Origin: a bacterium | GTDB taxonomy: Bacteria; SAR324; NAC60-12 | DNA: 64,000 nucleotides | Direction: 5' to 3' | Assembly: GCA_965205865.1 (NCBI GenBank) | Contig: CBDBHR010000029.1 | Coordinates: forward strand, 800,001-864,000 | Part shown: positions 4,648 to 61,655 of the stretch, piece by piece | Numbering within the stretch: the stretch's first letter is position 1 | Layout: each line of letters starts with the position of its first letter | Program-made: the position numbers and the translations under genes | The notes under the pieces: model-generated | Seen by the model: the letters and a program-made list of their open reading frames with translations, nothing else | The model's database searches: none | What the model was told of the DNA's origin: nothing

Positions 4648-4656
4648 AATTCCTCC

Positions 4657-5517: not shown

Positions 5518-5558
5518 TTTAAAATGCTTGATTCAAATAAAATACATTGGAGAAAGAA

Positions 5559-42606: not shown

Positions 42607-43563
42607 ATGAAACAGAATTTTTCGAAATTCCTCCCTCTTTTGATTTTGGGATTGATCTTTTTCTGGATTCCCACTCTTGCCATTGCGGAAGACCGGCAAA
42701 TCGCAGGGCAGCCTTGGTGGATCTGGCCCATCTTGCTCTTTGGGCTGACGTTTTTTATCGGAGTTGGTGGAGTAATGGCAGGAATTGGTGGGGGAGTCTT
42801 GTTCGTACCGTTTGTCAGCGGATTTTTCCCCTTTCACATTGATTTTGTGAGAGGAGCCGGATTGATGATTGCATTGGGCAGCTCCCTGGCTGCGGCTCCC
42901 AATTTGCTCAAAACAAACGTTGCCAGTCTCAAACTAGCTCTGCCTGCGGCATTGATTGCCTCCGGTTTTTCCATCATCGGCGCTCTCAGCGGCCTGTGGT
43001 TATCGCAGATCAATCCGGCATATATACAGATCAGTCTGGGAATTTTGATTTTCCTCATTGTTTTGCTCATGCTTTTTTCCAGTAATACGCTCTATCCGGA
43101 GGTCAAATCGGGAAATATTCTCACTGAAGCCCTGGGACTGAATGGTGTTTTTTATGAACCAACCCTGAATCGTCAAGTATCATGGAGCGTGCATCGAACA
43201 GCCAAGGGGTTAATGGCTTTCAGCCTGAGTGGCTTTCTGTCAGGTATGTTTGGATTAGGTGCAGGTTGGGCCAATGTTCCGATATTCAACCTGATCATGG
43301 GGGCTCCCTTAAAAATTTCAGTAGCCACCAGCAGCTTTGCCCTTTCCATCACCGACACCACGGCAATTTGGATTTACTTCAACCAAGGAGCGATTCTCCC
43401 CATTATCGTTATTCCCTCTCTGGCGGGTGTCATGATTGGTGGCAAAATCGGAGGACATTTGCTGCCCAAAGTCAATCCCACTCTGACACGAAAATTTGTG
43501 ATTGGCGTCTTAGCGCTGGCCGCCTTTTGCTCTTTGCTGAAAGGGATTTGGATTGTGATTTAA
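42607..43563 (+). CDS. TauE/SafE-family sulfite/sulfur-compound exporter
   Basis: Repeated GIGGGVLFVP and GLGAGWANVP motifs, ATS motif, many TMs. Confidence 0.9.
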   Translation: MKQNFSKFLPLLILGLIFFWIPTLAIAEDRQIAGQPWWIWPILLFGLTFFIGVGGVMAGIGGGVLFVPFVSGFFPFHIDFVRGAGLMIALGSSLAAAPNLLKTNVASLKLALPAALIASGFSIIGALSGLWLSQINPAYIQISLGILIFLIVLLMLFSSNTLYPEVKSGNILTEALGLNGVFYEPTLNRQVSWSVHRTAKGLMAFSLSGFLSGMFGLGAGWANVPIFNLIMGAPLKISVATSSFALSITDTTAIWIYFNQGAILPIIVIPSLAGVMIGGKIGGHLLPKVNPTLTRKFVIGVLALAAFCSLLKGIWIVI

Positions 43564-43615
43564 AACTTTATATTTGAAGATATGGTCTGATAATGTTATT
43601 ATAAATGGAAATCGT

Positions 43616-44029
43616 ATGAAATTGAAATATGAGAACCTGGAAATTCAACGTCGCTATGCGGAAGTGTTGAGACGGGTCTGTAATTTAGGTCTGGTCTTCC
43701 TTTTTCTCACCTTTGCGCTCTATGTACTCGGCATTGTCAAACCCCTGATACCCTTGGAATCAATGCCTCAGTATTGGAACCTGCCTCTGCAAGAATTCTT
43801 GCTGCAAACCGGCGCCCCCAGAGGTTGGGAATGGATCGAGCATATCGGAAAGGCCGATTATCTCACCTTCATCGGACTGATCATTCTTGCAGGCGTGACT
43901 GGAGTTTGTTACCTCTTATTACTGTTCTTTTTTGTTAAAACAAGGAAGCTATTGTATATTGTTTTGGTTAGTACGGAGTTTTTATTGATTGCTTTTGCTG
44001 CCTCCAACCTTTTCGAATTGGGACATTGA
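43616..44029 (+). CDS. DUF1634-like membrane partner of TauE
   Basis: Three TMs, P.GW.W...DYL.F.G pattern, located directly after TauE. Confidence 0.7.
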   Translation: MKLKYENLEIQRRYAEVLRRVCNLGLVFLFLTFALYVLGIVKPLIPLESMPQYWNLPLQEFLLQTGAPRGWEWIEHIGKADYLTFIGLIILAGVTGVCYLLLLFFFVKTRKLLYIVLVSTEFLLIAFAASNLFELGH

Positions 44030-44050
44030 TCAGCAAAATCCGGAGCCGTC

Positions 44051-45223
44051 ATGAGTGATGTAACCAGCATGAAAACCGCATTCAGAGAAGGGTATACGAC
44101 TTTATTTGGTCGGCAATGGCCCTATTGGGTGGCAGGTATTTTGCTTGGAGGGATCAATGTATTCATGTTTGCTTACGCACGTCCCTGGAGTTCGGCGGAT
44201 GGCATCAGAAATTGGGGAGATTGGTTTTATAAGACAATCGGAGCATCTGATCAAATCATCATCGATCCCCATCTTTACTCCACCTCCGTGCTCAACTTTG
44301 GTTTGATTGTCGGAAGCATGGCTGCTGCTTTGTTTGCCAGGCAGTTTGCTGTGCGGATCGCTCCTTTTCGTGAGCTTCTCAAAGGGTTAGTCGGAGGAAC
44401 TTTGATGGGAATTGGCTCCAGCCTTGCCTTTGGTTGCAACATCGGGGGATTTTTCAGCGCCACCAGCGCCTTGTCTCTATCAGGACCCACCATGATGCTG
44501 GGATTGCTCATGGGGGCGGTTATCGGACTAAAATTGCTCATTTGGGAAGTTGAATTCCTACCTGCTTCTACTGCCTCTCCTTCACGGCCTGCCTCTACAA
44601 AGCAGAGGCAGAGACAACCGGCAATAGCGGTCGTTCTTCTTCTTCTGGCCACGATCATAGTCTTCCTGTACGATGGCTTCGAGTATCAAGAGCGGGCAGG
44701 GTTGCTGTTTTTTGGTTTGCTGATCGGCATTGTTATGCAACGTTCCCAATTTTGTTTTGTACGCGCTTTTCGCGAGCCTTTTATGACAGGACAGGGTGAT
44801 GCTACCAAAGCAGTCGCCTTAGCTATCATCATAAGCGTCAGTGGTTTTAGTATTTTAAAATGGACAGATCTACGAGAATGGGATACAATGGTATCTTCCG
44901 GATTCTGGATTGGTAGTCTGATCGGAGGAATCGTTTTCGGAATCGGCATGTCCTTTGCGGGAGGGTGCGGTTCAAGCTGCATTTGGAGAGCAGGGGAAGG
45001 CCATGTGAAGTTGTGGCTGGCTCTGTTGACTTTTTCGTTGGTCGGCTCTTATTTCAGAGGATGGCTTGACGAGAGCGGCTGGCTGATGAAATTAGGAACC
45101 CAGGTATTTCTGCCTGACGTCATGGGTTGGAAACTGGCATATCTTACCATCATCGCCATCATGCTGCTTTGGTACTTGGTAGCAAGTTGGAATGAAATCA
45201 AGGGGAAACTGATCATTTCTTGA
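44051..45223 (+). CDS. YeeE/YedE (TsuA/SoxT-like) thiosulfate/sulfur transporter
   Basis: Conserved Cys motifs FGCNIG, RSQFCF and GGCGSSC; duplicated membrane halves. Confidence 0.9.
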   Translation: MSDVTSMKTAFREGYTTLFGRQWPYWVAGILLGGINVFMFAYARPWSSADGIRNWGDWFYKTIGASDQIIIDPHLYSTSVLNFGLIVGSMAAALFARQFAVRIAPFRELLKGLVGGTLMGIGSSLAFGCNIGGFFSATSALSLSGPTMMLGLLMGAVIGLKLLIWEVEFLPASTASPSRPASTKQRQRQPAIAVVLLLLATIIVFLYDGFEYQERAGLLFFGLLIGIVMQRSQFCFVRAFREPFMTGQGDATKAVALAIIISVSGFSILKWTDLREWDTMVSSGFWIGSLIGGIVFGIGMSFAGGCGSSCIWRAGEGHVKLWLALLTFSLVGSYFRGWLDESGWLMKLGTQVFLPDVMGWKLAYLTIIAIMLLWYLVASWNEIKGKLIIS

Positions 45224-45354
45224 GTCATGTCTTTGCTGTCTCTCTTTTGATCAGTAGAATTATTAAATGAAGCAGTTCTGGAACAAGTTGATCTGAGTCA
45301 ATCTCAAAAAGGGTGAATGTCGCTCTTGTCTTTCATCACTGGGAAAGGGAAAAT

Positions 45355-46674
45355 ATGAAAAAAAAATTCAGTCTATATTCAATCTTTTTAATCGTGCTCT
45401 TATGCTTTGCCGCAAACAGCGCGATGGCCGGTAAAAAATTTGGCGCTCCTACCGAAGGAATGACAAGTGCCGAGTATCAGAATTTGGTTTTCCTCGATCC
45501 TCAAAATACGGTCCGCATGGACTGGGATGCGGTGCGTAACCTGTCGGGGTATTTTTTCATAGACAATCAGGGAGAACCCACGGTTTCCGTCGTGGATTAC
45601 TTCCAAGAAAAAACGATCAAAAAAATCGATATGGGAGAGAATGGGAACCATCATATTTTTGTGATTCCAGGAGCTCGATACGTCTACTCTTCCCAGCGTT
45701 ATGAAAAAGATGTAATCTGGGTCATTGATCTGTTGACACTGGAGGTGGCCAAAAAAATCCATTTGAGCCGAGGTGGCAAACAAGTGATTGCCCCTCTGCA
45801 CATTGGCTTTGCTTACACCCAAGCGCTGGCTGTTACGGGAAATATTCTCGATAAAGAACATGGATATTTGACTTTCATAAACACTGCCACCCACGAAACA
45901 GATAGCATTGTGGAATTGACGTGCCATGGCGCTCGTGATGCCATGTTCACTCTGGACGATTCCAAAGTTTTTACGAGTTGTCAACAAGAGCCGAAAGGAA
46001 TGGCAGTTGTCGACGTTCAGAAAAGAAAACAGATCAAAATAGTACCTCTCAAGGGCAGTAGAACCGGAGCCATGACACCTGATGGTCAATATTATATCGT
46101 CGGAGCCTCCGGAGCATTTCATATTTTTGATACCGGTACCACTGAGTTGGTCAGATCTATCGAAGTGCCGGGCGGGGCTGGAAATGTGACCTGTCTCAAA
46201 GATAGTTCCAAATGCTATGGCGGTTTGAGAAAAGCAAAGGCTGTGGCAGTGTTGGATATGAAGAAGCTGGAGTTGATCAAAACAATCGAGACCGGTCCTG
46301 ATGCCAACAGGCTTTATTTAAACCCCGCCAATCCTCGTTATGGAATTTTTGCCAATGAAGGTGGTAAGTCCGATTTCGTCACTGTCATTGACACGGTGGC
46401 CGATGTTGCGATGAAAAACATCTACACAGGTCTGGGACCGCACAACGTAGCGTTCAATCCTGCAGGAACCCATGCGATTGTTTCCACCAAAAAAGAGCCG
46501 GTGGCCACCCTGATAGATACGTCATCAGCCAATCCTATGGATTGGGAGACTCTCACCACTGATATCGATTCAGGTATCCAAAACAATGGGGTCCGCTGGG
46601 TTCCCCATCCGGATGAGTTGAAACAATTGTTGGGAATGGTGGTGACGAAGGAACTTATCCTGGCGAGTAAATAA
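45355..46674 (+). CDS. Secreted YVTN/YncE-like beta-propeller protein
   Basis: Sec signal peptide; repeated V.VID....K.I..G blades. Confidence 0.85.
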   Translation: MKKKFSLYSIFLIVLLCFAANSAMAGKKFGAPTEGMTSAEYQNLVFLDPQNTVRMDWDAVRNLSGYFFIDNQGEPTVSVVDYFQEKTIKKIDMGENGNHHIFVIPGARYVYSSQRYEKDVIWVIDLLTLEVAKKIHLSRGGKQVIAPLHIGFAYTQALAVTGNILDKEHGYLTFINTATHETDSIVELTCHGARDAMFTLDDSKVFTSCQQEPKGMAVVDVQKRKQIKIVPLKGSRTGAMTPDGQYYIVGASGAFHIFDTGTTELVRSIEVPGGAGNVTCLKDSSKCYGGLRKAKAVAVLDMKKLELIKTIETGPDANRLYLNPANPRYGIFANEGGKSDFVTVIDTVADVAMKNIYTGLGPHNVAFNPAGTHAIVSTKKEPVATLIDTSSANPMDWETLTTDIDSGIQNNGVRWVPHPDELKQLLGMVVTKELILASK

Positions 46675-46690
46675 AAGTTTGTCTCCTTGC

Positions 46691-46728
46691 CCCCTCTTCT
46701 CCCGGAAACAGGGCGGGGAGGGGTTTTT
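46691..46728 (+). terminator. Intrinsic terminator-like hairpin between the propeller and soxY-like genes
   Basis: CCCCTCTTCTCCC-GGAAACA-GGGCGGGGAGGGG followed by TTTTT. Confidence 0.55.
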
Positions 46729-46768
46729 CACAAGTTCCTATTCAATCATGCAGTACGGAGGAAGAACG

Positions 46769-47248
46769 ATGAAATCAGAAAATGTCATCACAAGAAGAAA
46801 ATTCTTGCAGTACGCGGCCATTGGAGGAATGGCAGTCCCGGTATTTTCCAACTTGGTAATGCCCAATGCGGTACAAGGGGCTGTGACTCGTGAAATTTTC
46901 CGTTTCCCTCGAGATCTGAAGAATCTGACTGATGCGCAGCGCATGCATCTTCCCAAGGTCACTATGCCTCCCGTCGTTGAAGATGGCAGTCAGGCGCCGA
47001 TTGTGGTGGAAATGGATCATCCGATGGACCCGGACCACTATATCAGGAGTATCCAAATAGTCAGTTTTAATGATCCTGTCGTGAATAAGGGGCAGTTTTA
47101 CTTCACTCCCGCCAATGGTGAAGTTTACCTGGGCACCCAAATTCGCTTGGATGGTGGTGAGAGTACCGTATGGGTCATTGCCGAGTGTAACCAGGACGGT
47201 CTGTTTGCAATCAGTAGATCCGTCAAGGTGGCTGCCGGGGGATGCTAG
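46769..47248 (+). CDS. soxY: Tat-exported SoxY-like sulfur carrier with desulfoferrodoxin/SOR-type motifs (divergent)
   Basis: Tat motif TRRKFLQ, P.VVEDG...P, C-terminal VKVAAGGC; also HLP, HPM...HYI and CNQDG. GGAGG RBS. Confidence 0.75.
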   Translation: MKSENVITRRKFLQYAAIGGMAVPVFSNLVMPNAVQGAVTREIFRFPRDLKNLTDAQRMHLPKVTMPPVVEDGSQAPIVVEMDHPMDPDHYIRSIQIVSFNDPVVNKGQFYFTPANGEVYLGTQIRLDGGESTVWVIAECNQDGLFAISRSVKVAAGGC

Positions 47249-48885
47249 TGATGTGGAGAAGAATTGCCTCGATACTGGTCAAGATAACCAACCTTTTGAT
47301 CCTGTTCCTTTTCACATTCACGGGAAACTCTCCGCAAGCCTCCGAGATTGAGGGTTCCCACCCGATCGATCAGAAAAAAACGTGGGAGGAAATTCGGATT
47401 ATCTCGACCAATGATATCCACTATTACTTACACCCACTCTACTATCGATATATCGATGAAGTTCGACCTTGGGGAGCTCAATCCAGGGACGGGAATTATA
47501 TTGCAAAAGCAAGACTCGAGGGGAAAATTGGGGGGATGGCCCATGTGGCCACGGTGATCGAGAGGCTTCGCGGCGAAAAACCTGGAAAATCACTGGTTGT
47601 GGATGCCGGAGATACCTGGCATGGCTCTGCATTTTCGCTCGTGGACCGGGGTGAATCGATGGTCAGGATCTTGAATACTATCGGCTATGACGTGATGGCG
47701 CTCGGCAATTGGGATTTTTACTATGAGGAAGAGCAGTTTCTGAATTTAGTGGAACAAGCCCGATTCCCGGTACTGGCTTACAATCTCGTTGACAAAGAAT
47801 GGGAAGAGCCGGTCCTGGAGCAATTTACAATCAAGCAGGTAGGAAAACTGAAAGTCGCGATCGTGGGGATGACCTATCCCTGGACTGCCCTTACATCTGC
47901 AATTACAGGTGCTGCTCGATCGTACAAATTCGGAATCAGGGAAAATGAAGCTCAACTCTTGATCCGGCAAATCAGGGAGGAAGAAGATCCGGATCTCGTG
48001 ATATTTGTCTCTCATGGCGGCTATGGTCTGGATCAAAAGTTTGCGAAACGAGTGGATGGTATTGATGTTATAGTTAGCAGTCATACGCATGATGAAATTT
48101 TTCAACCCCTTGTCTGGAACGATACGATAATTTATCAAGCAGGCGCTCATGGAAAATATGTGGCCAAACTGGATCTCTGGGTCAAAGACAAGAAAGTGGT
48201 CGACTTCGATTATCAGTTGATCAAGATCAATAAAAAACGCATCCCAGCCCATCCTGAAGTCGCTCAAATCATTGAGGAAGCCTACCGTCCCCACAAAAAA
48301 AAACTGGAAGAGATCGTTGGAATATCCAAAAGCATGCTTTACCGGCGAGATTTTTGGCAAAGTACGCTGGGAAATCTGATCACCACCGCATTGCAGGATT
48401 CTGCCAAAACCGATATCGCTTTTTTCCCTGCCTGGAGGTTCGGCGCCACGCTGCTTCCGGGTAAAATCACTGTCGGAGACGTTTACAATATGGTACCCAC
48501 CCATGGACGGATCATCACTTATTCCATGCAGGGAGAGCAAATCAAAATGCTGCTGGAAAATATTCTGGGAAGTTTCACGGATGCGGATCCTTATGCTCGC
48601 GTGGGAGGGGATATGATCCGCTTTTCAGGTCTCAAAATCCGCTACGATTTGAACAGGAGAGTGAGAGATCGCATTGTTTCGCTGCGGATCGGAGACCAAC
48701 CTGTTGATTTAAATAAGTCCTACAGCATTGCATCCGTGCATACCCGTTTTCAAAACAATCCCCTCTTCGGGGCAACGAATATCAAAGATACCGGCAAAAT
48801 ATTTGTTGAGGAACTTATCCAATACATCCGAGAACACTCACCCCTCGTCTCTGAACTCGATGATAGGATAATGCCAGTTCAATGA
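47242..48885 (+). CDS. soxB: SoxB-like thiohydrolase (5'-nucleotidase/metallophosphoesterase family), divergent
   Basis: NDIH, DAGD.WHG, GNWDF, SHGG, SHTHD, plus SoxB-type GKIGG, LYRR, WRFG and GGDMIR segments; lies between SoxY-like and SoxZ-like genes. Confidence 0.75.
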   Translation: MLVMWRRIASILVKITNLLILFLFTFTGNSPQASEIEGSHPIDQKKTWEEIRIISTNDIHYYLHPLYYRYIDEVRPWGAQSRDGNYIAKARLEGKIGGMAHVATVIERLRGEKPGKSLVVDAGDTWHGSAFSLVDRGESMVRILNTIGYDVMALGNWDFYYEEEQFLNLVEQARFPVLAYNLVDKEWEEPVLEQFTIKQVGKLKVAIVGMTYPWTALTSAITGAARSYKFGIRENEAQLLIRQIREEEDPDLVIFVSHGGYGLDQKFAKRVDGIDVIVSSHTHDEIFQPLVWNDTIIYQAGAHGKYVAKLDLWVKDKKVVDFDYQLIKINKKRIPAHPEVAQIIEEAYRPHKKKLEEIVGISKSMLYRRDFWQSTLGNLITTALQDSAKTDIAFFPAWRFGATLLPGKITVGDVYNMVPTHGRIITYSMQGEQIKMLLENILGSFTDADPYARVGGDMIRFSGLKIRYDLNRRVRDRIVSLRIGDQPVDLNKSYSIASVHTRFQNNPLFGATNIKDTGKIFVEELIQYIREHSPLVSELDDRIMPVQ

Positions 48886-48933
48886 GCTAAAACAGTTTGC
48901 ATTAAAATATGGACCGTATCGAAAAAGGAAACC

Positions 48934-49284
48934 ATGGCTGAAAAAATCGCCCCCCCCCGCCTCCGTTTGCCGAGACGGATCAAGAAAGATCAAGTATTCA
49001 AAGTGAAGGTTAAATTCGACCACCCTTCGTTCACCGGGTTAGGACGGGTGGATGAGAAAACCCTGCCTCGTTTCAATCGGGCGGTACCAACTTCGTTCAT
49101 CCGCACAATGCTGGTTTACTATGGAGATGAGTTGGTCAACCGTTTCGCCATGAGTTCCGCGATTGCTGACTTTCCCCTCTTTACCTTCAAATTAAAAGCA
49201 ACCAAGGAAGCACCCGTCAAGGTGGTTTTTATCAACAATCATGGAGAACGTTGGGAAGTCTCCAAAGATGTAAAGCCCCGTTAA
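48934..49284 (+). CDS. soxZ: SoxZ-like carrier partner (no signal peptide)
   Basis: VKVKFDHP..TG...SAIADFPLFTFK...NNHG; size typical of SoxZ. Confidence 0.75.
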   Translation: MAEKIAPPRLRLPRRIKKDQVFKVKVKFDHPSFTGLGRVDEKTLPRFNRAVPTSFIRTMLVYYGDELVNRFAMSSAIADFPLFTFKLKATKEAPVKVVFINNHGERWEVSKDVKPR

Positions 49285-49330
49285 ATGAATATTTTATTTT
49301 TCAAAATAAAACGAGAATTGAGGGTCATTC

Positions 49331-50041
49331 ATGAATAATAGATTTACCACCTTGCTCCTCTTTTCCTTCATGGCAGGTTTGATTTTGAATACAATTGCTC
49401 AGCATTCAGTGGCCAATGCCGAGAAAGCTCAATTTGAAATCGAGGGATTGATTTCTCCTGTCAGTCCAAAAGCTCTGACCAAAGGGCTGCTGGACAAGCT
49501 GAGGGTGAAGGTGACTGACCTGAATTTGAAAAACACGCCGAGTGGTTGGCCAGTATTGACCGTCGAATTTGATGCCGCTACTGTCAGCAAAGAAGCAATT
49601 GAATCCGCCATTGCCTCAATCGAAGATCCGGCAGGTCACCATTTTCAAGTGCGCAAAGGACCTCCACGGGTGGAAGCCCCTTTGCTCAAGGAAGAAATGG
49701 ACGCCATAGCTGTCATCCCCGCATCTGTTCCTCAGATCCCATCTCTGGAAAATCCCATTCCACGCACCAGTGAATCGGAGGCACTCGGCCAAACGCTGTA
49801 TCGAAGAAACTGTGCCAAATGCCACGGCTTGGATGGAGGGGGACAAGGCCCCAGTGCGCATGGATTCCTCAGCAATCCCCGAAAACTTTATGTCTGGTTC
49901 AATACCGACTCCTCGACGGATGGTTATTTGTTTTGGTATATAACCCAAGGGCGCAACGACATGCCTCCCTGGGGACTGGTGCTCTCGGAAGAGGAGCGCT
50001 GGCATCTGGTCAACTACGTCAAATCCATGAAACAACCTTAG
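49331..50041 (+). CDS. Periplasmic monoheme cytochrome c with an N-terminal Cys-less HMA-like domain
   Basis: Signal peptide, FEIEGLISPVS, CAKCH, distal Met in NDMPPW. Confidence 0.85.
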   Translation: MNNRFTTLLLFSFMAGLILNTIAQHSVANAEKAQFEIEGLISPVSPKALTKGLLDKLRVKVTDLNLKNTPSGWPVLTVEFDAATVSKEAIESAIASIEDPAGHHFQVRKGPPRVEAPLLKEEMDAIAVIPASVPQIPSLENPIPRTSESEALGQTLYRRNCAKCHGLDGGGQGPSAHGFLSNPRKLYVWFNTDSSTDGYLFWYITQGRNDMPPWGLVLSEEERWHLVNYVKSMKQP

Positions 50042-50090
50042 CTTCCAAGGAGGGTCTGGCTCAACAAACTAAACCTCAACGAGTTTTTAG

Positions 50091-50513
50091 ATGGAGATCG
50101 CTCGGGATATCGTGACCCAATCTTTTCACGATATGAAATTTGAAGAACTCCTTGAAGATTTGGTCAAAGAAATCGAGTTGCGTAATTATCGCATCACTCG
50201 TGTTTATAACATTGACAATATCAAAGAGCGTAAAGAATTACTGCAAGATTTCCAGGTGGAATTCGAGCATTACAAGATCGTGGAATTTTGCAATTTGACC
50301 AAATGCGCAACTTTGATTTCTTCCCATCTTTTAGTAGGCGTTTTCATGCCGCTGAAATTCGTTGTCTATCAGGAAGTCACGCAAAGCCAAGTGGAGGTTG
50401 CGTTTTTAAAACCAACTGCCTTTGCCAAGATTTTTGACTCTGCCTCTCTCACTGAGATAGCCGCAGTGTTGGAGAAAGATATGCGCTATGTACTGGAAGA
50501 AATCGATTTTTAA
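50091..50513 (+). CDS. DUF302 domain protein
   Basis: YKIVEFCN...GVFMPLK.VVY...LKP. Confidence 0.8.
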   Translation: MEIARDIVTQSFHDMKFEELLEDLVKEIELRNYRITRVYNIDNIKERKELLQDFQVEFEHYKIVEFCNLTKCATLISSHLLVGVFMPLKFVVYQEVTQSQVEVAFLKPTAFAKIFDSASLTEIAAVLEKDMRYVLEEIDF

Positions 50514-51075
50514 AATACATCTGCTGACGGGGCTTGTTTTCCTGATGATGGGGGCTTTTTGTTATACCATGGCTCAGGATTCAAAACCAAAACCCGGGGG
50601 CGATTTCACCCTGCAATCGCTACGCGGCCCCGTGTCGCTCCATGATTTTCAAGGCAAAGTGGTTTTGCTGTTTTTTGGATACACGAGTTGTCCTTCAATG
50701 TGTCCGCTTTCCCTATCGACCATGGAAAGTACTTTCTCCAAAATGCCACCGGAGACCTTGCAGAAAATACAAGCCCTTTTTATCAGCTTGGATCCGGAAG
50801 AGGACACTTTGACGAAGTTGAAACAATACACAGAATTTTTTCATCCAAATATTCTTGGTGTGACCGACCAGCCAGAAAGTATCGCTCGGGTTGCGCAACA
50901 ATATGGGGTGGTTTATGAGAGAGAATTATTGAGCCATTCAGCCCTGGGATATATCATCAATCACACAGCTGATATCTTCCTGGTCGATCCTCAAGGAAAA
51001 TTACAAGAATCGGTGGCCCATGATTCTCCCCCTCAACTGCTTCGCGAGTCTATCCATCGACTTCTTTCCCGATAA
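50488..51075 (+). CDS. SCO-family copper chaperone
   Basis: FFGYTSCPSMCP (CxxxC), SLDPEED, YIINH. Confidence 0.93.
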   Translation: MYWKKSIFKIHLLTGLVFLMMGAFCYTMAQDSKPKPGGDFTLQSLRGPVSLHDFQGKVVLLFFGYTSCPSMCPLSLSTMESTFSKMPPETLQKIQALFISLDPEEDTLTKLKQYTEFFHPNILGVTDQPESIARVAQQYGVVYERELLSHSALGYIINHTADIFLVDPQGKLQESVAHDSPPQLLRESIHRLLSR

Positions 51076-51119
51076 AGAGCCCGGACGGACTTTTAACCTT
51101 TCATTTTCAATTTCAGACT

Positions 51120-52697
51120 ATGGCTCTGTTGCGAACCTGCTTATTTTTTCCGGCAATCTGGATTGCCTTGATCATCTCTGCCCACGCTTTCGAACATGAG
51201 CATTCTCCCGTTCAATTTTTGGAATACCACCCCACCATCATTGACAATCAAAAATTCCGGAAAAAACCTTTTTATCTGCTCTTCTCAGCGCAATGGTGTC
51301 ATTGGTGTAAGATCTTTGCCAACAAGACATTGATGGATCCCAACGTACACGCCTTTCTCAATGAGAATTTTGTCAATATCTTCATTGATGCCGATATCCA
51401 CCCGACCGTTTTTAAAAAATTCAAGGCAACAGGCTGGCCCTACACAGTTTTTTTGAATCCCGATACTAGTGTTCACTATCAGTACGCGGGTACCGTTTAT
51501 CCCAAAGATTTCGTTAAAGTACTGTATGAAGTCAAGCAAAATGTAGACGAAGGACGGACGATCCCCGGGTTTGAAACGATTGCTTATGAATATGATCCTC
51601 CCAAAGAATTGGAAAAGGAAAGAATGCAGTCGTTCCAGGAATTGTTTCAGCAAACGATTTTGGAGAATTTTGACCTGAGCGAAGGAGGGATCGGCAAAAA
51701 AGAAAAAGCCATTTTTCCCGGAACCCTTCTCTATCTGTTGGACACGGCCAATGCGGAAGACCGGGCTGAGGTCATCGAGTCGATCCACCTGACTTTGAAG
51801 AAAGCAATCCTGCGCATCTATGATCCCATTGAAGGAGGATTTTTCCGCTATGCGGAGAAACGGGAGTGGCAAATCCCACATTATGAAAAAATGGCGGATT
51901 TGAATGCGGGAAATATTTTGCTTCTTTACAAAATGGCGCGCGAGACTAAAGATGCCGAATTGAAGAAAATCGCAGACCAAACGCTGAAATATCTGGTCAC
52001 GACTCTCTTTGATTCAAAGACCGGTATCTTTTTGAGCTTCCAAGAAGCCGACACGCATTACTATTTCTTTGATGCCAAGCAACGAAAAACCATGCAAGCT
52101 CCCTTCGTGATTCAAAAGGTCTTTGTCAACCGTGTGGCTCCTACGCTCGACTATCTGATCGATGTCCTTGAATATTCTGATGGATTTGCTCTTGAACATA
52201 AAATAAAACAATCTCTTGATTTGCTGGCATCGATGATCCGGCAAAATGATCGACTCTCCCACTATTACTCGGTGACCCGGAACAAATGGATGGGTGAAAG
52301 CCGGCTGGCGAATTATGCGTACTTGGCATATTTATTCCAGAAAGCCGCCACTCGTTTTGAAAATCCCCATTTTGAGGAAACGGCATTGATAGTTTTGCAA
52401 TCAACCAAGAACCAGTTTTTTGACCGAGACCTGCGTATTTTTGCTGATAGTCTTTCCCTGCATTGGGGAGATATTGAATATCACATGGAAATGAACGGTT
52501 TCCTGGCGCAAATGCTCTTGCATACCAAAAAAGTGAGCAACAGCAGAGCGGCTGAAGGGCTGCTGACCTATTTTCTCGCCATGGATGAATATCTCGAAGA
52601 ACAAGCCTGGGATGCTCGTGAATGGGAATTTCTGGAACGCTATGTTCCTTATCTGAAAGCGCTCGGACTGCGCAATGAAAAAGCAAAAAACCGATGA
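51120..52697 (+). CDS. Secreted thioredoxin (DUF255) + alpha/alpha-barrel protein (YyaL/SPATA20-like)
   Basis: Signal peptide, WCHWC, GWP.TVFL, GGFFRY...W.IPHYEKM. Confidence 0.8.
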   Translation: MALLRTCLFFPAIWIALIISAHAFEHEHSPVQFLEYHPTIIDNQKFRKKPFYLLFSAQWCHWCKIFANKTLMDPNVHAFLNENFVNIFIDADIHPTVFKKFKATGWPYTVFLNPDTSVHYQYAGTVYPKDFVKVLYEVKQNVDEGRTIPGFETIAYEYDPPKELEKERMQSFQELFQQTILENFDLSEGGIGKKEKAIFPGTLLYLLDTANAEDRAEVIESIHLTLKKAILRIYDPIEGGFFRYAEKREWQIPHYEKMADLNAGNILLLYKMARETKDAELKKIADQTLKYLVTTLFDSKTGIFLSFQEADTHYYFFDAKQRKTMQAPFVIQKVFVNRVAPTLDYLIDVLEYSDGFALEHKIKQSLDLLASMIRQNDRLSHYYSVTRNKWMGESRLANYAYLAYLFQKAATRFENPHFEETALIVLQSTKNQFFDRDLRIFADSLSLHWGDIEYHMEMNGFLAQMLLHTKKVSNSRAAEGLLTYFLAMDEYLEEQAWDAREWEFLERYVPYLKALGLRNEKAKNR

Positions 52698-52990: not shown

Positions 52991-53845
52991 ATGAAATATG
53001 TAGCACCAAAATCAGTCGAGGAGGCACTTGCTCTACTTGGTACGGAACCAGACTATTGTGTGTTCGCCGGAGCAACTGATATTGTCCCACAGATGCGAGC
53101 GGGACGACCCGAACCGAAACTGATGGTTAATCTGAAGAGCATCCCGGACTTGATTGGTATGGAATGCGAAAATGGCGCATGGACCGTAGGGGCCGCTACG
53201 CCAGTGGCCTCTATCCATGGAAGCGCGGACTTTCAGGCGGATTTCCCGGGGATTGCTGAATCCAGTGGACTGATCGGTTCCGATCAGATCCAAAACAGGG
53301 CTAGTTGGGGAGGTAATGTTTGCAATGCGTCTCCGGGAGCAGACACCGTACCGGCTTTAATCGTCAATGACGCGCAAGCCGTGATTGCAACCAATGGAGG
53401 CACTCGCGCGATACCCGTGTCCGAGGTGGCCACTGGCCCGGGGCAGACGTCGCTGGCATCAGGTGAGTTTGTCGTCGAATTTAAAATTGAACGCCCGTCT
53501 CCGCGCACCTCTGATGCCTATGAGCGGTTTATTCCCCGCACGGAGATGGATATCGCAGTCGTTGATGCGGCAGCGAGGATTACGCTGGATGAGAATGATC
53601 ATTGCAAAGAGGCAACAATCGCTGTTGGTGCGGCAGCCCCCACTATCGTTCGAGTACCAGCGGCTGAGGATGCGCTGCGGGGTCAGCCTATCAACGATCA
53701 GACATTGGCCGCCGTCGGTGCCGCCGCCAGTGCCGCATGTAGCCCAATCAATGATAAACGAGGTACCATTGAATATCGTACTCAGGTCGCTGGGGTTCTA
53801 GCGAAACGGGTTGTCAAATTAGCAGCGGAACGTGCACGCAAATGA
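52991..53845 (+). CDS. Xanthine-dehydrogenase-family FAD subunit (CoxM-like)
   Basis: AGATD, QIQNRASWGGNVCNASP, D.RG..EYR. Confidence 0.92.
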   Translation: MKYVAPKSVEEALALLGTEPDYCVFAGATDIVPQMRAGRPEPKLMVNLKSIPDLIGMECENGAWTVGAATPVASIHGSADFQADFPGIAESSGLIGSDQIQNRASWGGNVCNASPGADTVPALIVNDAQAVIATNGGTRAIPVSEVATGPGQTSLASGEFVVEFKIERPSPRTSDAYERFIPRTEMDIAVVDAAARITLDENDHCKEATIAVGAAAPTIVRVPAAEDALRGQPINDQTLAAVGAAASAACSPINDKRGTIEYRTQVAGVLAKRVVKLAAERARK

Positions 53846-53855
53846 GGAGAATAGT

Positions 53856-54332
53856 ATGAATCGAACACATGTAGTATGTAATATTAATGGCGACGAGGTC
53901 GAGTTTCTTTGTGATGACGATGAATCATTGCTCGATGCGTTGCGCGACGAAGTTGGACTAACAGGGGCAAAGGAAGGCTGCGGTACCGGAGACTGTGGCG
54001 CTTGTTCAATAATTTTCGATGGCCTCTTGATTTGTTCATGCCTGGCATTTGCTCCCGAAGCAAATGGCGCGCACATTGAAACAGTCGAAGGAATGGCCGA
54101 CGGGGAGACGCTCCATCCCTTGCAAACAGCTTTTCTCGAAGGAGCCGCTCTGCAATGTGGGGTTTGTACTCCGGGATTTCTCGTTGCTGCCAAAGCATTG
54201 CTCGAGCGCAATTCCGATCCCACGGAAACCGAAATTCGTTATGCCCTGGCTGGCAATCTTTGCCGTTGTACCGGATATGACAAAATCGTGCGCTCGGTGA
54301 TTGATGCCGCCGCACAAATGAATAACGCATAA
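53856..54332 (+). CDS. Xanthine-dehydrogenase-family 2x[2Fe-2S] subunit (CoxS-like)
   Basis: GCGTGDCGAC, QCGVCTPG, NLCRCTGY. Confidence 0.95.
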   Translation: MNRTHVVCNINGDEVEFLCDDDESLLDALRDEVGLTGAKEGCGTGDCGACSIIFDGLLICSCLAFAPEANGAHIETVEGMADGETLHPLQTAFLEGAALQCGVCTPGFLVAAKALLERNSDPTETEIRYALAGNLCRCTGYDKIVRSVIDAAAQMNNA

Positions 54333-54349
54333 AGGAAAGGGGAAATATT

Positions 54350-56602
54350 ATGACAATTGCTAATGAAACTTCTGAAACCAAAACCCCCTATAAATGGATC
54401 GGAACCCGACCCGTACGACACGATGGGTTGGAAAAAGTGACCGGTCGTGCCCGCTTTGCCGCGGATATGATCATGCCCAGGATGATCCATGGTCACGTCT
54501 TACGCTCCCCTCATGCCCATGCGCGTATTCTTTCCATCGATACGACGGAAGCGGAAGCCATGGCCGGAGTGAGAGCCATCGTCACAGGCAAGGATTTTCC
54601 GGATCCGAATCCCTCGGACAACGTTTCACGCAATTTGATGGCACGCGACAAGGTGCGCTATGAAGGGCAGGTAGTGGCCGCCGTGGCTGCCAATACTCGT
54701 CGTCAGGCCAAAGCGGCTGCCGAGAAGATCGCGATTGAATACGAAGTACTGGGTCATGTAATAACCGTCGATGAAGCCATGGCCGATGACGCGCCTTTGC
54801 TCCACGAAAACTTGATAACCAAGGGTGTCGACCCGGTTCCCACCAAACCCTCTAACATTGCCAACCGGTCTCACTACGAGCGTGGTGACCTCGAAGCTGG
54901 TTTTGCAGAGGCAGACGTGGTGTATGAGCACGAGTTTACCACCAAGGTTGTTCATCAAGGCTATATTGAACCACACGCCGCCGTTGCCGATACCGGCACA
55001 GACGGTCGCTCGACCATTTGGTGCTCCTCTCAGGGACATTTTCGGGTCCGTTCCCAGACCGCGAAAATGTTAGGTTGGGAAACTTCCCAAATCAAAGTGA
55101 TCCCGGCCGAGATTGGAGGAGGATTTGGTGGCAAAACCACCATATATCTCGAACCACTGGCAGTGAGGCTCTCTGAGCTTGCGAAGCGGCCGGTAAAAAT
55201 CGTCATGAGTCGTGATGAAGTCTTTCGAGCAACCGGACCCACCCCCGGTACGCGGGTTAAGGTCAAACTTGGAGCTCGTAAGGACGGCACGCTTGTGGCG
55301 GGTAAAGCCTGGCTCGCATATGAGAGTGGGGCCTTCCCTGGAATTTGGGGAATGCTGGGCGCCTGGTGTGTCTTTGCGCCTTACAAAATCCCCAACTTTA
55401 AAATCGAAGCCTTTGAGGTAGTGGTCAATAAACCCGTCAATGTCGCCTATCGAGCTCCGTCAGCGCCTATGGCTGCCTTTGCTACGGAGACCGTTCTTGA
55501 CCAGATCGCTTGCGAGATAAAAATGGATCCAATCGATTTGCGATTGCTCAATGCGGCGGAGGAAGGCCATCAGAGGCCGGAAGGGCCGATATACGGACCG
55601 ATAGGGCTCAAGGCAACCTTGGAAGCCATTCGCGACCATCCCCATTACAAAGCGCCGTTGGCTCCCAATCAAGGACGTGGGGTCGCGACCGGGTTTTGGT
55701 TCAACATCGCGGAATCTTCAAGCGCGACGGTTAATCTTACCGAAAATGGCACTGCAGTCGTGGTCACCGGTAGTCCGGATATTGGCGGCAGTCGCGCTTC
55801 AATGGCACTCTTTGCCGCCGAAGAGCTCGGCATCGACGTCAAACTGATTCAACCCGTCGTGGGCGATACCGAATCCGTTGGCTTCACTGATGTTACCGAG
55901 GGAAGTCGCGCCACTTTCGCCACAGGATGGGCGGTAGTGGAAGCCTGTCGTAAACTCGTTGTTCAACTGCGGGAACGAGCGGCTATCATGTGGGACTGCA
56001 ATGTCGATGAGGTTGAATGGATCGATGGCAGTGCCTACCATACTGGCAAAAATGAGCCACCGCTCTCACTGGCAGAGATCACTGGCGCAGCGAAACAGAC
56101 CGGAGGTCCGCTCACGGCAACGGGTTCTCTCGAGGCCAAAGGCCAAGGTCCGGCCTTTTCCTCTCATATCTGTGACCTTGAAGTCGATCCTGAAACAGGA
56201 AGGGTCACCATTGTGAGATACACCACGGCTCAGGATGCCGGCACGGCCATTCATCCCAGTTATGTGGAAGGACAAATGCAAGGAGGAGTGGCGCAGGCCA
56301 TTGGCTGGGCGCTCAATGAGGAATATATCCATGACGACAAAGGAGTTATGGAAAACCCGAGTTTTCTGGATTATCGTATTCCTGTTGCTTCGGATCTTCC
56401 CATGATCGAAACGATCATTGTCGAAGTACCCAATCCCAATCATCCTTATGGGGTGCGAGGAGTTGGTGAGGTGGGCATTGTGCCTCCTATTCCTGCGATT
56501 GCAAACGCCATCTCTGATGCGGTTGGAGTACGTTTGCGCGATCTTCCCATGTCTCCGGTCGCGCTTCTCGATGCATTGAACAAACACAACGGCGCTGGCT
56601 GA
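54350..56602 (+). CDS. Xanthine-dehydrogenase-family molybdopterin subunit (not form I CODH)
   Basis: RSPHAHA, GGGFGGK, AYRAP, EGQMQGG, RGVGE. Confidence 0.93.
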   Translation: MTIANETSETKTPYKWIGTRPVRHDGLEKVTGRARFAADMIMPRMIHGHVLRSPHAHARILSIDTTEAEAMAGVRAIVTGKDFPDPNPSDNVSRNLMARDKVRYEGQVVAAVAANTRRQAKAAAEKIAIEYEVLGHVITVDEAMADDAPLLHENLITKGVDPVPTKPSNIANRSHYERGDLEAGFAEADVVYEHEFTTKVVHQGYIEPHAAVADTGTDGRSTIWCSSQGHFRVRSQTAKMLGWETSQIKVIPAEIGGGFGGKTTIYLEPLAVRLSELAKRPVKIVMSRDEVFRATGPTPGTRVKVKLGARKDGTLVAGKAWLAYESGAFPGIWGMLGAWCVFAPYKIPNFKIEAFEVVVNKPVNVAYRAPSAPMAAFATETVLDQIACEIKMDPIDLRLLNAAEEGHQRPEGPIYGPIGLKATLEAIRDHPHYKAPLAPNQGRGVATGFWFNIAESSSATVNLTENGTAVVVTGSPDIGGSRASMALFAAEELGIDVKLIQPVVGDTESVGFTDVTEGSRATFATGWAVVEACRKLVVQLRERAAIMWDCNVDEVEWIDGSAYHTGKNEPPLSLAEITGAAKQTGGPLTATGSLEAKGQGPAFSSHICDLEVDPETGRVTIVRYTTAQDAGTAIHPSYVEGQMQGGVAQAIGWALNEEYIHDDKGVMENPSFLDYRIPVASDLPMIETIIVEVPNPNHPYGVRGVGEVGIVPPIPAIANAISDAVGVRLRDLPMSPVALLDALNKHNGAG

Positions 56603-56847
56603 TGGTTCGAGTCATTCTTGCATCAAATCTGCAAAGCTTCACCGATGGGGTTGAAGTAGTCGAAGTGCAAGCCTCTTCGGTGAAGTCACTTGTAAAAGAA
56701 CTCGACCGGCGCTACCCTGGTATCGCCAATGCGCTCAAATCCGGCTTTGCTGTCGCCATCAACGGCGAAGTCGTCGCCCACCCCACCTATGAACGGATCC
56801 CTGAAGGTGCGGAAGTTCACGTCCTTTCTGCAATCCAGGGGGGGTAG
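56602..56847 (+). CDS. MoaD/ThiS ubiquitin-like sulfur carrier
   Basis: Beta-grasp pattern AVAINGE and C-terminal IQGG. Confidence 0.88.
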   Translation: MVRVILASNLQSFTDGVEVVEVQASSVKSLVKELDRRYPGIANALKSGFAVAINGEVVAHPTYERIPEGAEVHVLSAIQGG

Positions 56848-57961: not shown

Positions 57962-58201
57962 TCAGTTCTTTTGAATGAAAAAGACATGCGCGTTTCCTTC
58001 CACCTCCGTTTTGAGAATTGAATTCCCGGTACGAGTACTCCAGGTTCTCATGTCACTGATGAAGCCCGGATCCGTCGAAGCCATTTTCAGCACTTGTCCG
58101 GGGGATAACTTGGACAACGCCTTTTTTGTTTGCAGCGCGGGCATCGGACAAGTGAGATTTCGGCAATCCAAATACTGATCAAAGTTCATATCTTGCCGCA
58201 T
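57962..58201 (-). CDS. tusA: TusA-family sulfurtransferase
   Basis: LDCRNLTCPMP...TDPG..SD. Confidence 0.92.
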   Translation of the reverse strand: MRQDMNFDQYLDCRNLTCPMPALQTKKALSKLSPGQVLKMASTDPGFISDMRTWSTRTGNSILKTEVEGNAHVFFIQKN

Positions 58202-58250
58202 TGACTTTTCTCCTTGCCAAATGGCATTTTACGTTGCTGATTGTTTTTTT

Positions 58251-58970
58251 TCAAAGATCGGTATGTAGCCCGCATTCTGTTTTTTCACACTGATTCCACC
58301 GGTCCTCTCTTCCATTGATTCCCACACCCTTTGTGCAGGGAACACATCCCAGGCTTTGATCTTTTCCTGAAATATGGAGAGGATGGACAGGGATTCGCTT
58401 TTTTTTCATATAAGTAAAAACTTCGTCGGAAGTCCAATCCAGGAAGGGATGGAGTTTATATATTTCCTTTTTTGTCAAGATGGCACGCGCAAAGCTGCTT
58501 CTCTGATGGGTCTGACTTTTGCGCACCGCGGAAATCCACGCCCGAACGCCATACTGGTTGATATAGTCTTCCAGTGGTTGAACTTTATTCATGGCACAGC
58601 ACAAATCGGGATTGGACAAGTACAATCTCCCATGTTTTTTTAAAAAATCCTCTTTTGTGAGTTTTGGCAATGCTTCCACGAAATCCAGTTTCCTATAATT
58701 TGCTTTCAAGGTCTCGAAGTAATCCAGGGTTTCCTGAAACAAGAAACCGGTGTTGACAAAAACGACGCGGATGGGCAATTCGAGTTCGGACAAAAAATGA
58801 ACCAGCACTCCTGAGCTGATACCGCAGGAGGTCGTAGCGATTAATTTGTCACCGAAAATATCATAGGCTTCCCGAATGAGCCGCGCCGTATCCAGGTGAT
58901 TGAGTTTGCGCAATACAGCCTGTATTTGCGTAAAGTGCTCGCCAATCGGCATTTGATTCGACATGTTCAT
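58251..58970 (-). CDS. cysH: APS/PAPS reductase (4Fe-4S type)
   Basis: NTGFLFQET, DLCC, SLGCVPCT, KTECGLH. Confidence 0.92.
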   Translation of the reverse strand: MNMSNQMPIGEHFTQIQAVLRKLNHLDTARLIREAYDIFGDKLIATTSCGISSGVLVHFLSELELPIRVVFVNTGFLFQETLDYFETLKANYRKLDFVEALPKLTKEDFLKKHGRLYLSNPDLCCAMNKVQPLEDYINQYGVRAWISAVRKSQTHQRSSFARAILTKKEIYKLHPFLDWTSDEVFTYMKKKRIPVHPLHISGKDQSLGCVPCTKGVGINGREDRWNQCEKTECGLHTDL

Positions 58971-58986
58971 GACTTCCATTTTGGCT

Positions 58987-61140: not shown

Positions 61141-61199
61141 GTTTACCTTTTGAAAAATTCCTTTCTCCCAGACCTCTCCAGTTGTGGGAGCTTTTATAA

Positions 61200-61655
61200 T
61201 TAAATATAATAAATGAAACCCTGGTTGTTCCGAGAACTCACTTTGGCTTCCCGTCTCAGAATATCCTGCATACTGATAGTGTCTAAAACCCTGGCTATTG
61301 CTTCCTGAACTTCGGCCCATACTCCAAAAAAATGAAGGCGACCTTCTCCCACGGATTGCAAATGAGTCAGGGGATCCGAATGTTCCGGAGAGAACCAGCG
61401 TTTATCAACCAAGCGAATGATATCCCCCAAAAAAATTTCATCCGGTGGCTTTGCCAGAGCATAACCCCCACTTGGCCCTTTTCTGCTTTCCACATATCCT
61501 GCTTTTTTCAACTGTAACATGATTTGTTCGAGATACTTGTTCGGGATATCTTGAGCTTTGGAAAGATCCGAGACCCGTACCAGTTTGTTGTTGTAATAAT
61601 GCGATAGCTCCAAAACTGCGCGCAGCGCATAATTACATCGGGTTGAGCGCTTCAT
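61200..61655 (-). CDS. Rrf2-family regulator lacking the three-Cys Fe-S motif (CymR-like)
   Basis: STRCNYALRA, YLEQI, SRKGPSGGY; first gene of the sir-cysH-tusA unit. Confidence 0.9.
   Translation of the reverse strand: MKRSTRCNYALRAVLELSHYYNNKLVRVSDLSKAQDIPNKYLEQIMLQLKKAGYVESRKGPSGGYALAKPPDEIFLGDIIRLVDKRWFSPEHSDPLTHLQSVGEGRLHFFGVWAEVQEAIARVLDTISMQDILRREAKVSSRNNQGFIYYI

Follow-up and report, generated by a model that had tools for sequence, protein, structure and literature searches.

A Sox-like gene cluster of SAR324 and other bacteria with a SoxY/superoxide reductase-type carrier and a conserved beta-propeller

Gene content and conservation of the cluster

A 64,000-nucleotide stretch of DNA from a bacterium of the SAR324 lineage (contig CBDBHR010000029.1 of assembly GCA_965205865.1, positions 800,001 to 864,000; below called the window) carries, at positions 42607-52697, a cluster of 11 open reading frames (ORFs) that encodes a Sox-like system. 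Its parts come from known superfamilies and its logic is Sox-like; new are a carrier protein that joins a superoxide reductase (SOR)-type metal site to a C-terminal cysteine, a conserved beta-propeller partner, and independence from SoxAX. Gene content, conservation, the absence of SoxAX and SoxCD, the conservation of metal ligands and the predicted docking of the propeller were established by computation.

As the original prediction had described, all 11 ORFs lie on the plus strand, a soxB-type gene stands between a soxY-type and a soxZ-type gene (here called SoxB', SoxY' and SoxZ'), exactly one CxxCH motif occurs across the 11 proteins, in a cytochrome c, and neither SoxA nor SoxC is encoded in the cluster; SoxX is likewise missing there. 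Neighbouring ORFs overlap or are separated by 10-131 nt. Pfam and NCBIfam confirmed the labels of nine of the 11 proteins (Table 1). Two earlier labels found no backing: gene 2, which had been called DUF1634, belongs to no Pfam family, and the N-terminal stretch of about 110 residues of the cytochrome, described as HMA-like, gave no Pfam match at E <= 10.

A propeller-based scan with one genome per species yielded 40 related loci in SAR324, Gammaproteobacteria (Arenicellales, Poriferihabitaceae, Thiotrichales) and Binatia, that is, in three phyla. The nine-gene order of the window, YeeE/propeller/SoxY'/SoxB'/SoxZ'/cytochrome c/DUF302/SCO/DUF255-thioredoxin, was found in 19 of the 40 loci, and the same order minus DUF302 in four further ones (L015, L017, L039, L040). 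The remaining 17 loci are cut by contig ends, and all genes that fit keep the window order. The gene immediately 5' of the propeller is YeeE in 39 of the 40 loci, and the remaining one, L013, begins inside the propeller region. It had been stated beforehand that propeller and SCO genes without conserved neighbourhood in other genomes would speak against the prediction, and in the related loci both are conserved neighbours. Homologues of TauE and gene 2 occur among the 40 loci only in L006, the window's 91%-identical relative, and TauE is an accessory gene outside the conserved core. Within the window's phylum the propeller was found in 12 of 88 genomes, all from one family, and the SAR324 rows of the SoxB' tree described below are not monophyletic; both observations fit horizontal spread, and the cluster appears to be conserved and mobile.

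The borders drawn in the original prediction are right, because RecR and housekeeping genes lie on the opposite strand 5' of the cluster and an operon for a CoxM/CoxS/CoxL-type FAD/2Fe-2S/molybdopterin hydroxylase, followed by a ThiS-family gene, directly downstream (52991-56847, plus strand). The same CoxMSL-type operon lies downstream of the cluster in L006. Promoter and terminator consensus scans gave no excess over shuffled sequence (16 sites versus 16.1, and 13 versus 12.9). RNA-library contigs from two studies, 97-98% identical to the window, cover the genes from YeeE through the thioredoxin gene; a 3481-nt contig bridges YeeE, propeller, SoxY' and SoxB', and a 1399-nt contig bridges SoxZ', cytochrome and DUF302. 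Some bins of the cluster were without cover in some RNA runs. At window position 45251, RNA contigs from three runs of one study have one base fewer in the gap between YeeE and propeller, a strain or assembly difference.

Table 1. The 11 genes of the cluster in the window, with the evidence for each assignment.
Feature	Positions	Strand	Evidence
TauE/SafE-family anion (sulfite) exporter	42607..43563	+	Pfam PF01925, 108 bits
Gene 2, small membrane protein without family	43574..44029	+	Pfam, no match even at E <= 10
YeeE/YedE/SoxT-type sulfur transporter	44051..45223	+	Pfam Sulf_transp PF04143, 181 bits
Secreted beta-propeller, predicted eight-bladed, YVTN/cd1-type	45355..46674	+	Pfam/NCBIfam, AlphaFold2 model
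SoxY', Tat-exported SoxY/SOR hybrid carrier	46769..47248	+	Pfam SoxY 65 bits and Desulfoferrodoxin 31.2 bits
SoxB', divergent SoxB-type dinuclear metallohydrolase	47242..48885	+	TIGR04486, 406 bits (cut-off 550)
SoxZ', partner of SoxY', no signal peptide of its own	48934..49284	+	Pfam SoxZ, 50 bits
Secreted monohaem cytochrome c	49331..50041	+	Pfam Cytochrome_CBB3, 60 bits
DUF302 protein, no signal peptide	50091..50513	+	Pfam DUF302, 39 bits
SCO1/SenC-type copper chaperone or thiol-disulfide oxidoreductase	50488..51075	+	Pfam SCO1-SenC PF02630, 129 bits
Secreted DUF255 (DsbH-type) thioredoxin with helical domain	51120..52697	+	Pfam Thioredox_DsbH, 64 bits

The carrier SoxY' and its partners SoxB' and SoxZ'

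SoxY' scored above the Pfam cut-offs of two families at once, SoxY (cut-off 28.4) and Desulfoferrodoxin (PF01880, cut-off 22.2), and all 120 listed relatives pass both cut-offs as well, save one without Desulfoferrodoxin match. Its translation probably starts at the ATG at 46769 (MKSENVITRRKFL, with the motif for twin-arginine translocation, Tat), and the Tat signal was recognized by TIGR01409 (20 bits, cut-off 16.7). Against the SoxY equivalog TIGR04488, which has a GGCGG arm, SoxY' reached 59.7 bits (cut-off 125). Canonical SoxY ends in GGCGG, whereas the C-terminus of SoxY' reads ...VAAGGC-stop in all 31 orthologues, so that the protein ends with its reactive cysteine (C159 of the precursor).

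In a HMMER alignment with solved SORs (4brj, 2amu) every iron ligand of these enzymes was matched in SoxY': mHLPK corresponds to the SOR motif KHxPK, HPMDPDHYI to HPxxxxHxI, and ECNQ(H/D)G to YCNLHG. SoxY of Thermus thermophilus, placed in the same alignment, has none of the SOR ligand residues. Three of the ligands (mature H23, H47 and C103; H60, H84 and C140 of the precursor) are invariant across the 31 orthologues, at least 90% of the rows have mature H53 (precursor H90), and at the position of the fifth ligand 29 of the 31 rows show His, the window and L007 Asp. The AlphaFold2 (AF2) model of SoxY' (predicted local distance difference test score, pLDDT, 73) pointed in the same direction, as its five best Foldseek matches were all SORs (E 7e-6, template modelling (TM) score 0.71) and SoxY appeared only at rank 8 (E 3.6e-4, TM 0.53). 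Judged by these alignments, SoxY' carries an SOR-type Fe(His)4(Cys) ligand set in an Ig-like fold, and metal binding is predicted.

With SOR and neelaredoxin (Ignicoccus hospitalis 4bk8, Thermotoga maritima 2amu), SoxY' shares the fold and the positions of four His and one Cys (KHxP, HPxxxxH, CNxHG). Unlike these proteins it has a Tat signal, a SoxZ-like partner and a SoxY-type Cys arm, it lies in a sulfur-oxidation cluster, and in the window its fifth ligand is Asp; with its predicted periplasmic location it falls outside the SOR class of cytoplasmic enzymes. Going by SOR topology, the metal site and the C-terminal arm presumably sit at opposite poles of the sandwich. The original prediction had overlooked the hybrid nature of SoxY', and our literature search found no paper that links SoxY with SOR or desulfoferrodoxin and none on a SoxY that carries SOR ligands. 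A metal site of the SOR type within a carrier protein would represent new protein chemistry.

SoxB' aligned with the SoxB equivalog TIGR04486 from model position 103 only and stayed below its cut-off. Across 300 genomes from the class to which G008, one of the cluster-bearing genomes, belongs, canonical SoxB scored 680-907 bits, and a separate group, aligned only from model position ~103, scored 338-400 bits. A quick maximum-likelihood tree was calculated from 53 rows, comprising the 24 best canonical SoxB sequences (all from the class of G008), the window, 18 of 30 cluster loci, seven other paralogues and three nucleotidase-like genes of the window's own genome. SoxB' of the cluster formed its own clade (SH-like approximate likelihood ratio test, SH-aLRT, 99) apart from canonical SoxB (100) and the other paralogues, and the expected position outside the canonical clade was thereby borne out; the tree separates the three groups, and the branching order among them is without support. 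The closest solved protein is SoxB of T. thermophilus (2wdc, E 3e-60; best nucleotidase 8e-26), and the metallophosphoesterase and dinuclear-metal motifs are all kept in the 31 orthologues. SoxB' is very probably a working SoxB-type hydrolase. SoxZ' also scored below its equivalog cut-off (TIGR04490, 45.5 bits, cut-off 76), with a mean column identity of 81% over the 31 orthologues.

Names in databases differ for these proteins. JGI/KEGG-style labels present them as ordinary soxB, soxY and soxZ, while NCBI calls SoxB' a 5'-nucleotidase, and surveys therefore score the hosts as having an 'incomplete Sox system' or none. Among the other SoxB-like paralogues (338-368 bits, in seven Gammaproteobacteria), none adjoins a propeller or SoxY'. 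Further SoxB-like paralogues, with 233-252 bits to SoxB', were seen in L079 (9582-13090) and L080 (6524-10516), whose hosts also have canonical SoxB; they adjoin DUF255-type thioredoxin genes (95-98 bits to that of the window), which suggests a recurring SoxB-like/DUF255 pair outside the cluster.

A SOR-like protein, a cytochrome c as donor, a thioredoxin and an SCO with peroxiredoxin fold could also be the parts of a periplasmic superoxide or peroxide defence, or of a system that handles a different chalcogen, for instance selenium. Such a role outside sulfur metabolism would agree with the Desulfoferrodoxin score and the SOR-like model of SoxY', with the selenium protein YedE/FdhT as best NCBIfam match of YeeE (131 bits, cut-off 350), and with the AhpC/TSA and DsbD-like similarities of SCO and thioredoxin. 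Nevertheless, the SoxY-type arm, SoxZ' and SoxB' are invariant, SoxB' is the sole SoxB beside canonical soxXYZA operons, and the neighbours of related clusters are TusA, DsrEFH, dsrAB, PDO-rhodanese and Calvin-cycle genes, so that we regard a non-sulfur role as very unlikely.

The beta-propeller and its predicted docking to the carrier

The propeller probably starts at the ATG at 45355, at the onset of its Sec signal. Its AF2 model (pLDDT 85.9) had NirF as best VIA match (6tv2; Z 32.2, rmsd 3.1, 333 residues aligned), followed among the top matches by the eight-bladed cd1 NirS, NirN (Z 30.5) and AztD (Z 28.3). Going by these structural neighbours the propeller is predicted to be eight-bladed; the likeness to NirF, NirS, NirN and AztD is one of shared fold, which does not show shared function. 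Foldseek and VIA returned only generic propeller folds for it and assigned no function, and the protein Atlas, queried with the homologue P0096, likewise returned only generic YncE, cd1 and NirF clusters.

Hundreds of propeller relatives share 67-73% identity across phyla. The invariant residues are H99, H100, H149, R194, D195, N277, N318, R319, H363, N364 and Q409-N411, which include four invariant His; by the repeat pattern, those at the starts of the innermost strands would line the mouth of the central channel. In a search against 50% representatives the propeller formed a tight family with one full-length representative and fragments, the next relatives being 26-34% identical. Three such distant relatives (P0130, P0133 and P0138, 26-32% identity) keep HH, H149, RD, HN and GNNGVRW and lack the four cysteines of the window's propeller, which therefore probably form structural disulfides.

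The propeller had been likened to copper thiocyanate dehydrogenase, and this part of the original prediction did not hold. We rejected a thiocyanate dehydrogenase- or NosZ-like copper propeller, as the chains of such enzymes matched with E-values of 0.14-0.47 only, the best structural neighbours are eight-bladed, and four His are invariant. Membership in L-NosZ (NF052460) was rejected at 61.6 bits (cut-off 700). With thiocyanate dehydrogenase and NosZ, including the lactonase-type clade III, the system has in common a secreted propeller, a His-lined pocket, a cytochrome c and an SCO-type gene nearby, and L-NosZ as weak best NCBIfam match; it differs in having eight blades instead of seven, four invariant His and no cupredoxin domain. 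The SCO gene alone hints at a copper dependence of the propeller.

Another known arrangement, associated with quinoprotein dehydrogenases, brings together a YVTN propeller (TIGR03866), a fused SoxYZ-like carrier (TIGR04557) and the cytochrome c550 PedF (TIGR04494). The window's proteins matched these models weakly, with 60.7 bits for TIGR03866, 48.4 and 38.1 bits for TIGR04557 and 32.7 bits for TIGR04494 (cut-offs 287, 140 and 122), and the cluster differs from this trio in that no PQQ (pyrroloquinoline quinone) dehydrogenase is present, the carrier is split and SoxB' is added. The trio itself is not known to have a defined function.

A complex prediction for the propeller and SoxYZ had been suggested in the original prediction, and it was run with three chains, SoxY', SoxZ' and propeller, on 31-row alignments from the same genomes. 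Docking was predicted with an ipSAE interface score of 0.80 (0.79, 0.82 and 0.80), compared with 0.01 for the best of three controls; among solved complexes 116 of 157 attain such a score, and mismatched pairs do so in 2 of 215 cases, a yardstick that is rough here (own alignments, three chains). The runs agreed in at least 93% of the contacts, and the partners had a pLDDT of at least 91. SoxY'Z' makes contact through the invariant PPVVEDG loop of SoxY' and through two SoxZ' strands, the confident SoxY' contacts being mature residues 28-32, 35, 38, 40, 42 and 87. On the propeller side the contacts involve the D-A and B-C loops near the pocket residues H363 and Q409, in the stretches NQG72-73, GL359-360 (just before H363), KEP380-382, TTD401-403 and GIQ407-409. 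The models support binding of the propeller to SoxY'Z'.

The pairing is also found outside the tight propeller family. When metagenomes were scanned with P0130, a short contig (L048) and a single weak match were recovered, and at 350-2228 of L048 a SoxY/SOR hybrid with Tat signal stands directly upstream of a divergent propeller. This SoxY' is 45% identical to that of the window, has the same ligands and ends in VTVGGC; the propeller is 61% identical to P0130 and belongs to a divergent subfamily with about 32% identity to the window's propeller. The propeller of L048 lies next to a SoxY/SOR hybrid, and the pairing therefore predates the tight propeller family. The gene order in L048 is reversed, with the carrier first. 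A search of 401 Pseudomonadota genomes for the context of the divergent subfamily returned only the centre genome's own cluster, and the partial ORF 5' of the L048 SoxY' had no significant match to the DUF255 protein (E 0.2).

The docking could also be read as that of a metallochaperone or maturation factor, comparable to AztD for zinc or NirF and NirN for haem d1, which would load the metal of SoxY'; the Fe(His)4Cys site of SoxY' would then itself load the arm Cys and pass electrons to cytochrome c. The best structural neighbours indeed handle cofactors (NirF, NirN and AztD, with the Z scores given above), the central pocket is His-rich, direct binding to SoxY'Z' is predicted, the cluster holds a second chaperone-type gene (SCO), and the metal ligands of SoxY' are conserved. 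However, the confident SoxY' contacts exclude the ligands H23, H47, H53, C103 and 106 and, going by SOR topology, presumably lie at the opposite pole from the metal site. A substrate site would fit better with the 67-73% identity of the propeller across phyla and with a pocket that holds two invariant Arg and several Asn/Gln residues, and the AztD family match had an E-value of only 0.002 (16.9 bits, cut-off 400). We consider a metallochaperone improbable.

A further possibility gives SoxY' the active part. It might be a redox-active carrier, an evolutionary intermediate of SORs and SoxY, whose Fe(His)4Cys site and docked propeller load thiosulfate or sulfite onto its own C-terminal Cys, so that SoxAX is dispensable; this seems rather unlikely to us. 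In such a self-loading carrier the Fe(His)4Cys site would be, and we find this just as doubtful, the non-haem counterpart to the haem with thiolate ligand in SoxA. If true, self-loading would account for the 'incomplete SoxYZ-B only' sulfur oxidation reported from SAR324 and from related mesopelagic and sponge-associated bacteria. A SAR324 pangenome study names SoxYZ and SoxB as the sole Sox parts found below 200 m (PMC8364033).

Host genomes and the proposed sulfur route

The window's own genome (91.9% complete, 4.74 Mb) carries every cluster gene in single copy. Profile searches of this genome found no SoxA or SoxX (TIGR04484, TIGR04485), no SoxC (best match to TIGR04555 25.7 bits, cut-off 420), no DsrA and no AprA. 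We compared 17 other cluster-bearing genomes. SoxA scored over the cut-off in five of them, the same five that have canonical SoxY, and was missing from the other 12, SoxC scored over the cut-off in two, and canonical SoxB in none, SoxB' being the sole SoxB-type gene in all 17. DsrA was over the cut-off in 14 genomes; G006 has it in fragments, and G001 and G015 lack it. The canonical soxXYZA operon of G008 is convergent to the cluster and lies 1-2 kb downstream of it, just past rpe; in G002, G010 and G011 soxXYZA is placed similarly, judged by coordinates. SoxB' is the only SoxB-type gene in these genomes with canonical soxXYZA and therefore very probably acts there as a SoxB-type (thiosulfohydrolase-type) hydrolase. 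The module can stand alone, as in 12 of the 17 genomes and the window's own, or beside SoxAX. The claim of a distinct, conserved Sox-like system without SoxAX and SoxCD is sustained by these counts, and the search for soxAX and soxCD elsewhere, proposed along with that claim, came out clean for the window's own genome and positive for some related hosts.

The neighbour genes in other genomes point to sulfur oxidation. TusA-DsrEFH flanks the cluster in L010, TusA and DsrE2 flank it in L007 (with dsrA, by coordinates, also in the upstream flank), a PDO-rhodanese and a YeeE-half protein flank it in L027, and Calvin-cycle genes (PRK, rpe) lie nearby in several loci. In the window, 5 kb downstream of the cluster (57962-61320, minus strand), we observed genes for a TusA homologue, a PAPS-reductase-domain protein and a 777-aa fused NIR_SIR sulfite-reductase-type protein; this TusA is 37-44% identical to those flanking the L007 and L010 clusters. 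The three genes could form a cytoplasmic sulfur route, or serve plain assimilation.

The remaining proteins of the conserved core can be assigned roles with varying confidence. YeeE has a Sulf_transp domain with three conserved channel cysteines (C129, C235 and C306, invariant in 37 orthologues) and stays below the NCBIfam equivalog cut-offs of TsuA and YedE. For SoxT/YeeE proteins a role has been proposed in bringing sulfane sulfur bound to SoxYZ into the cytoplasm, where it would be oxidised (PMC11582611). The better reading of YeeE is that of a SoxT-like protein which imports the sulfane sulfur held by the carrier, with a presumed inward direction. From the earlier idea that YeeE and TauE both move sulfur species, the conserved importer remains, and TauE, present only in the window and L006, drops out of the core. 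The cytochrome c has CAKCH as its sole haem-binding motif, CxxCH and MPPWG are conserved in 28 orthologues, and it is the probable electron acceptor. In the DUF302 protein, which has no room for a signal peptide, the motif CNLxxC is conserved; DUF302 genes sit unexplained inside soxCD-less sox clusters of Acidithiobacillia and others (PMC5037610). SCO shows the CxxxC motif and distal His of its family, with C68, C72, P73 and the His conserved in 26 orthologues. The DUF255 protein matched PDB entry 7tkv (E 1e-17), and its WCxWC motif is conserved in 23 orthologues.

A close known counterpart is the truncated Sox system (SoxXA-SoxYZ-SoxB, no SoxCD), which feeds cytoplasmic rDsr (reverse Dsr) or sHdr via SoxT/YeeE in Allochromatium and Hyphomicrobium denitrificans (PMC11582611). 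Common to both are a Tat-exported SoxY/SoxZ-type pair, a SoxB-type hydrolase, a YeeE/SoxT gene, the lack of SoxCD, rDsr in most hosts and a periplasmic thioredoxin (cf. SoxS/SoxW). In contrast to truncated Sox, SoxAX is missing from the cluster and from 12 of the 17 hosts, and the carrier ends in GGC instead of GGCGG and has SOR-type ligands. SoxB', SoxY' and SoxZ' are below the NCBIfam equivalog cut-offs, with SoxB' in a separate clade, and the propeller, the monohaem cytochrome with an extra domain, SCO and the DUF255 thioredoxin are conserved here.

The soxXYZA operons near the cluster also suit the idea that the module processes carrier-bound sulfane. The propeller would then oxidise the persulfide to an S-sulfonate, as a Mo-free substitute of SoxCD, or strip it for YeeE, and loading would be done by SoxAX or occur non-enzymatically from sulfide or polysulfide. 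Besides the short distance of 1-2 kb in G008, the similar placement in G002, G010 and G011 and the lack of another SoxB there, the rarity of SoxC and the order YeeE-propeller-SoxY', which fits a transfer role, would be consistent with this. On the other hand, the 12 genomes and the window's own that are without SoxA keep SoxB', which needs a sulfonate-bearing adduct, and rDsr in 14 of the 17 genomes makes a periplasmic six-electron oxidation of sulfane redundant. Sulfane processing as the main task is therefore hard to maintain, and we see little chance for it.

We favour, with modest confidence, a carrier-based periplasmic sulfur-oxidation module in which the propeller is the docking partner of the carrier. 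We infer its substrate, the direction of transport, the identity of the metals and the role of the propeller as loader and not oxidiser. SoxY'Z' would be exported by Tat, with SoxZ' hitch-hiking on SoxY', and would bind the substrate on the thiol of the terminal Cys of ...AAGGC. The propeller would dock at the arm end of SoxY'Z' and bind, in its His/Arg/Asn-lined pocket, thiosulfate or, where TauE is present, exported sulfite. It would couple this oxyanion oxidatively to the carrier Cys, in place of SoxAX, and electrons would pass to cytochrome c; this specific role as a loader is a tentative proposal. SoxB' would hydrolyse the terminal sulfonate to sulfate, and the leftover sulfane sulfur would enter the cytoplasm by way of the YeeE/SoxT-like channel and reach TusA/DsrE and, in most hosts, the reverse Dsr pathway. 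SCO and the DUF255 thioredoxin might mature the system or keep it reduced, by copper delivery or thiol-disulfide maintenance like SoxS/SoxW, and the SOR-type metal site of SoxY', at the pole opposite the arm, could be a conserved redox or structural centre.

Several observations weigh against this proposal. The propeller has no recognised Cu, haem or PQQ signature and no assignable redox cofactor. The carrier arm (mature 117-122) is not among the confident contacts of the docking model, which thus does not show the arm entering the pocket, and the window's own SoxY' has Asp at the fifth SOR ligand position. Dsr and Apr are absent from the window's genome and from its closest relative, and the proposed cytoplasmic sink was thus not found in the window's genome. 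As canonical SoxAX occurs alongside the cluster in five of the 17 genomes, the module need not replace SoxAX everywhere. Moreover, all carriers of the cluster are uncultured, and DNA may be present in the RNA-library contigs, which are no proof of a single transcript. Taken as a whole the original prediction is partly supported, namely in the conserved system without SoxAX and SoxCD and in the docking, and not in the likeness to a copper propeller. Literature searches of main texts, aimed at the cluster or its parts, turned up no description of it. If the module is a loader that works without SoxAX, it fills a gap in marine thiosulfate or sulfite oxidation and alters the counting of sox marker genes.

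Some clusters and genomes show irregularities. In the gammaproteobacterial cluster of L019 an insertion of about 1.4 kb (15049-16437) separates DUF302 from SCO. Possible decay was seen in L027, where the DUF255 gene is split into three ORFs (15846-17444), in a propeller gene with an in-frame TAA (G737:C2:581151-582401), and in the DsrA gene of G006, which is in four frame-shifted pieces (G006:C1:553591-554803). Far upstream of the cluster, the window has a region of low GC content at 4001-6000 (0.379, compared with ~0.48 for the whole window).

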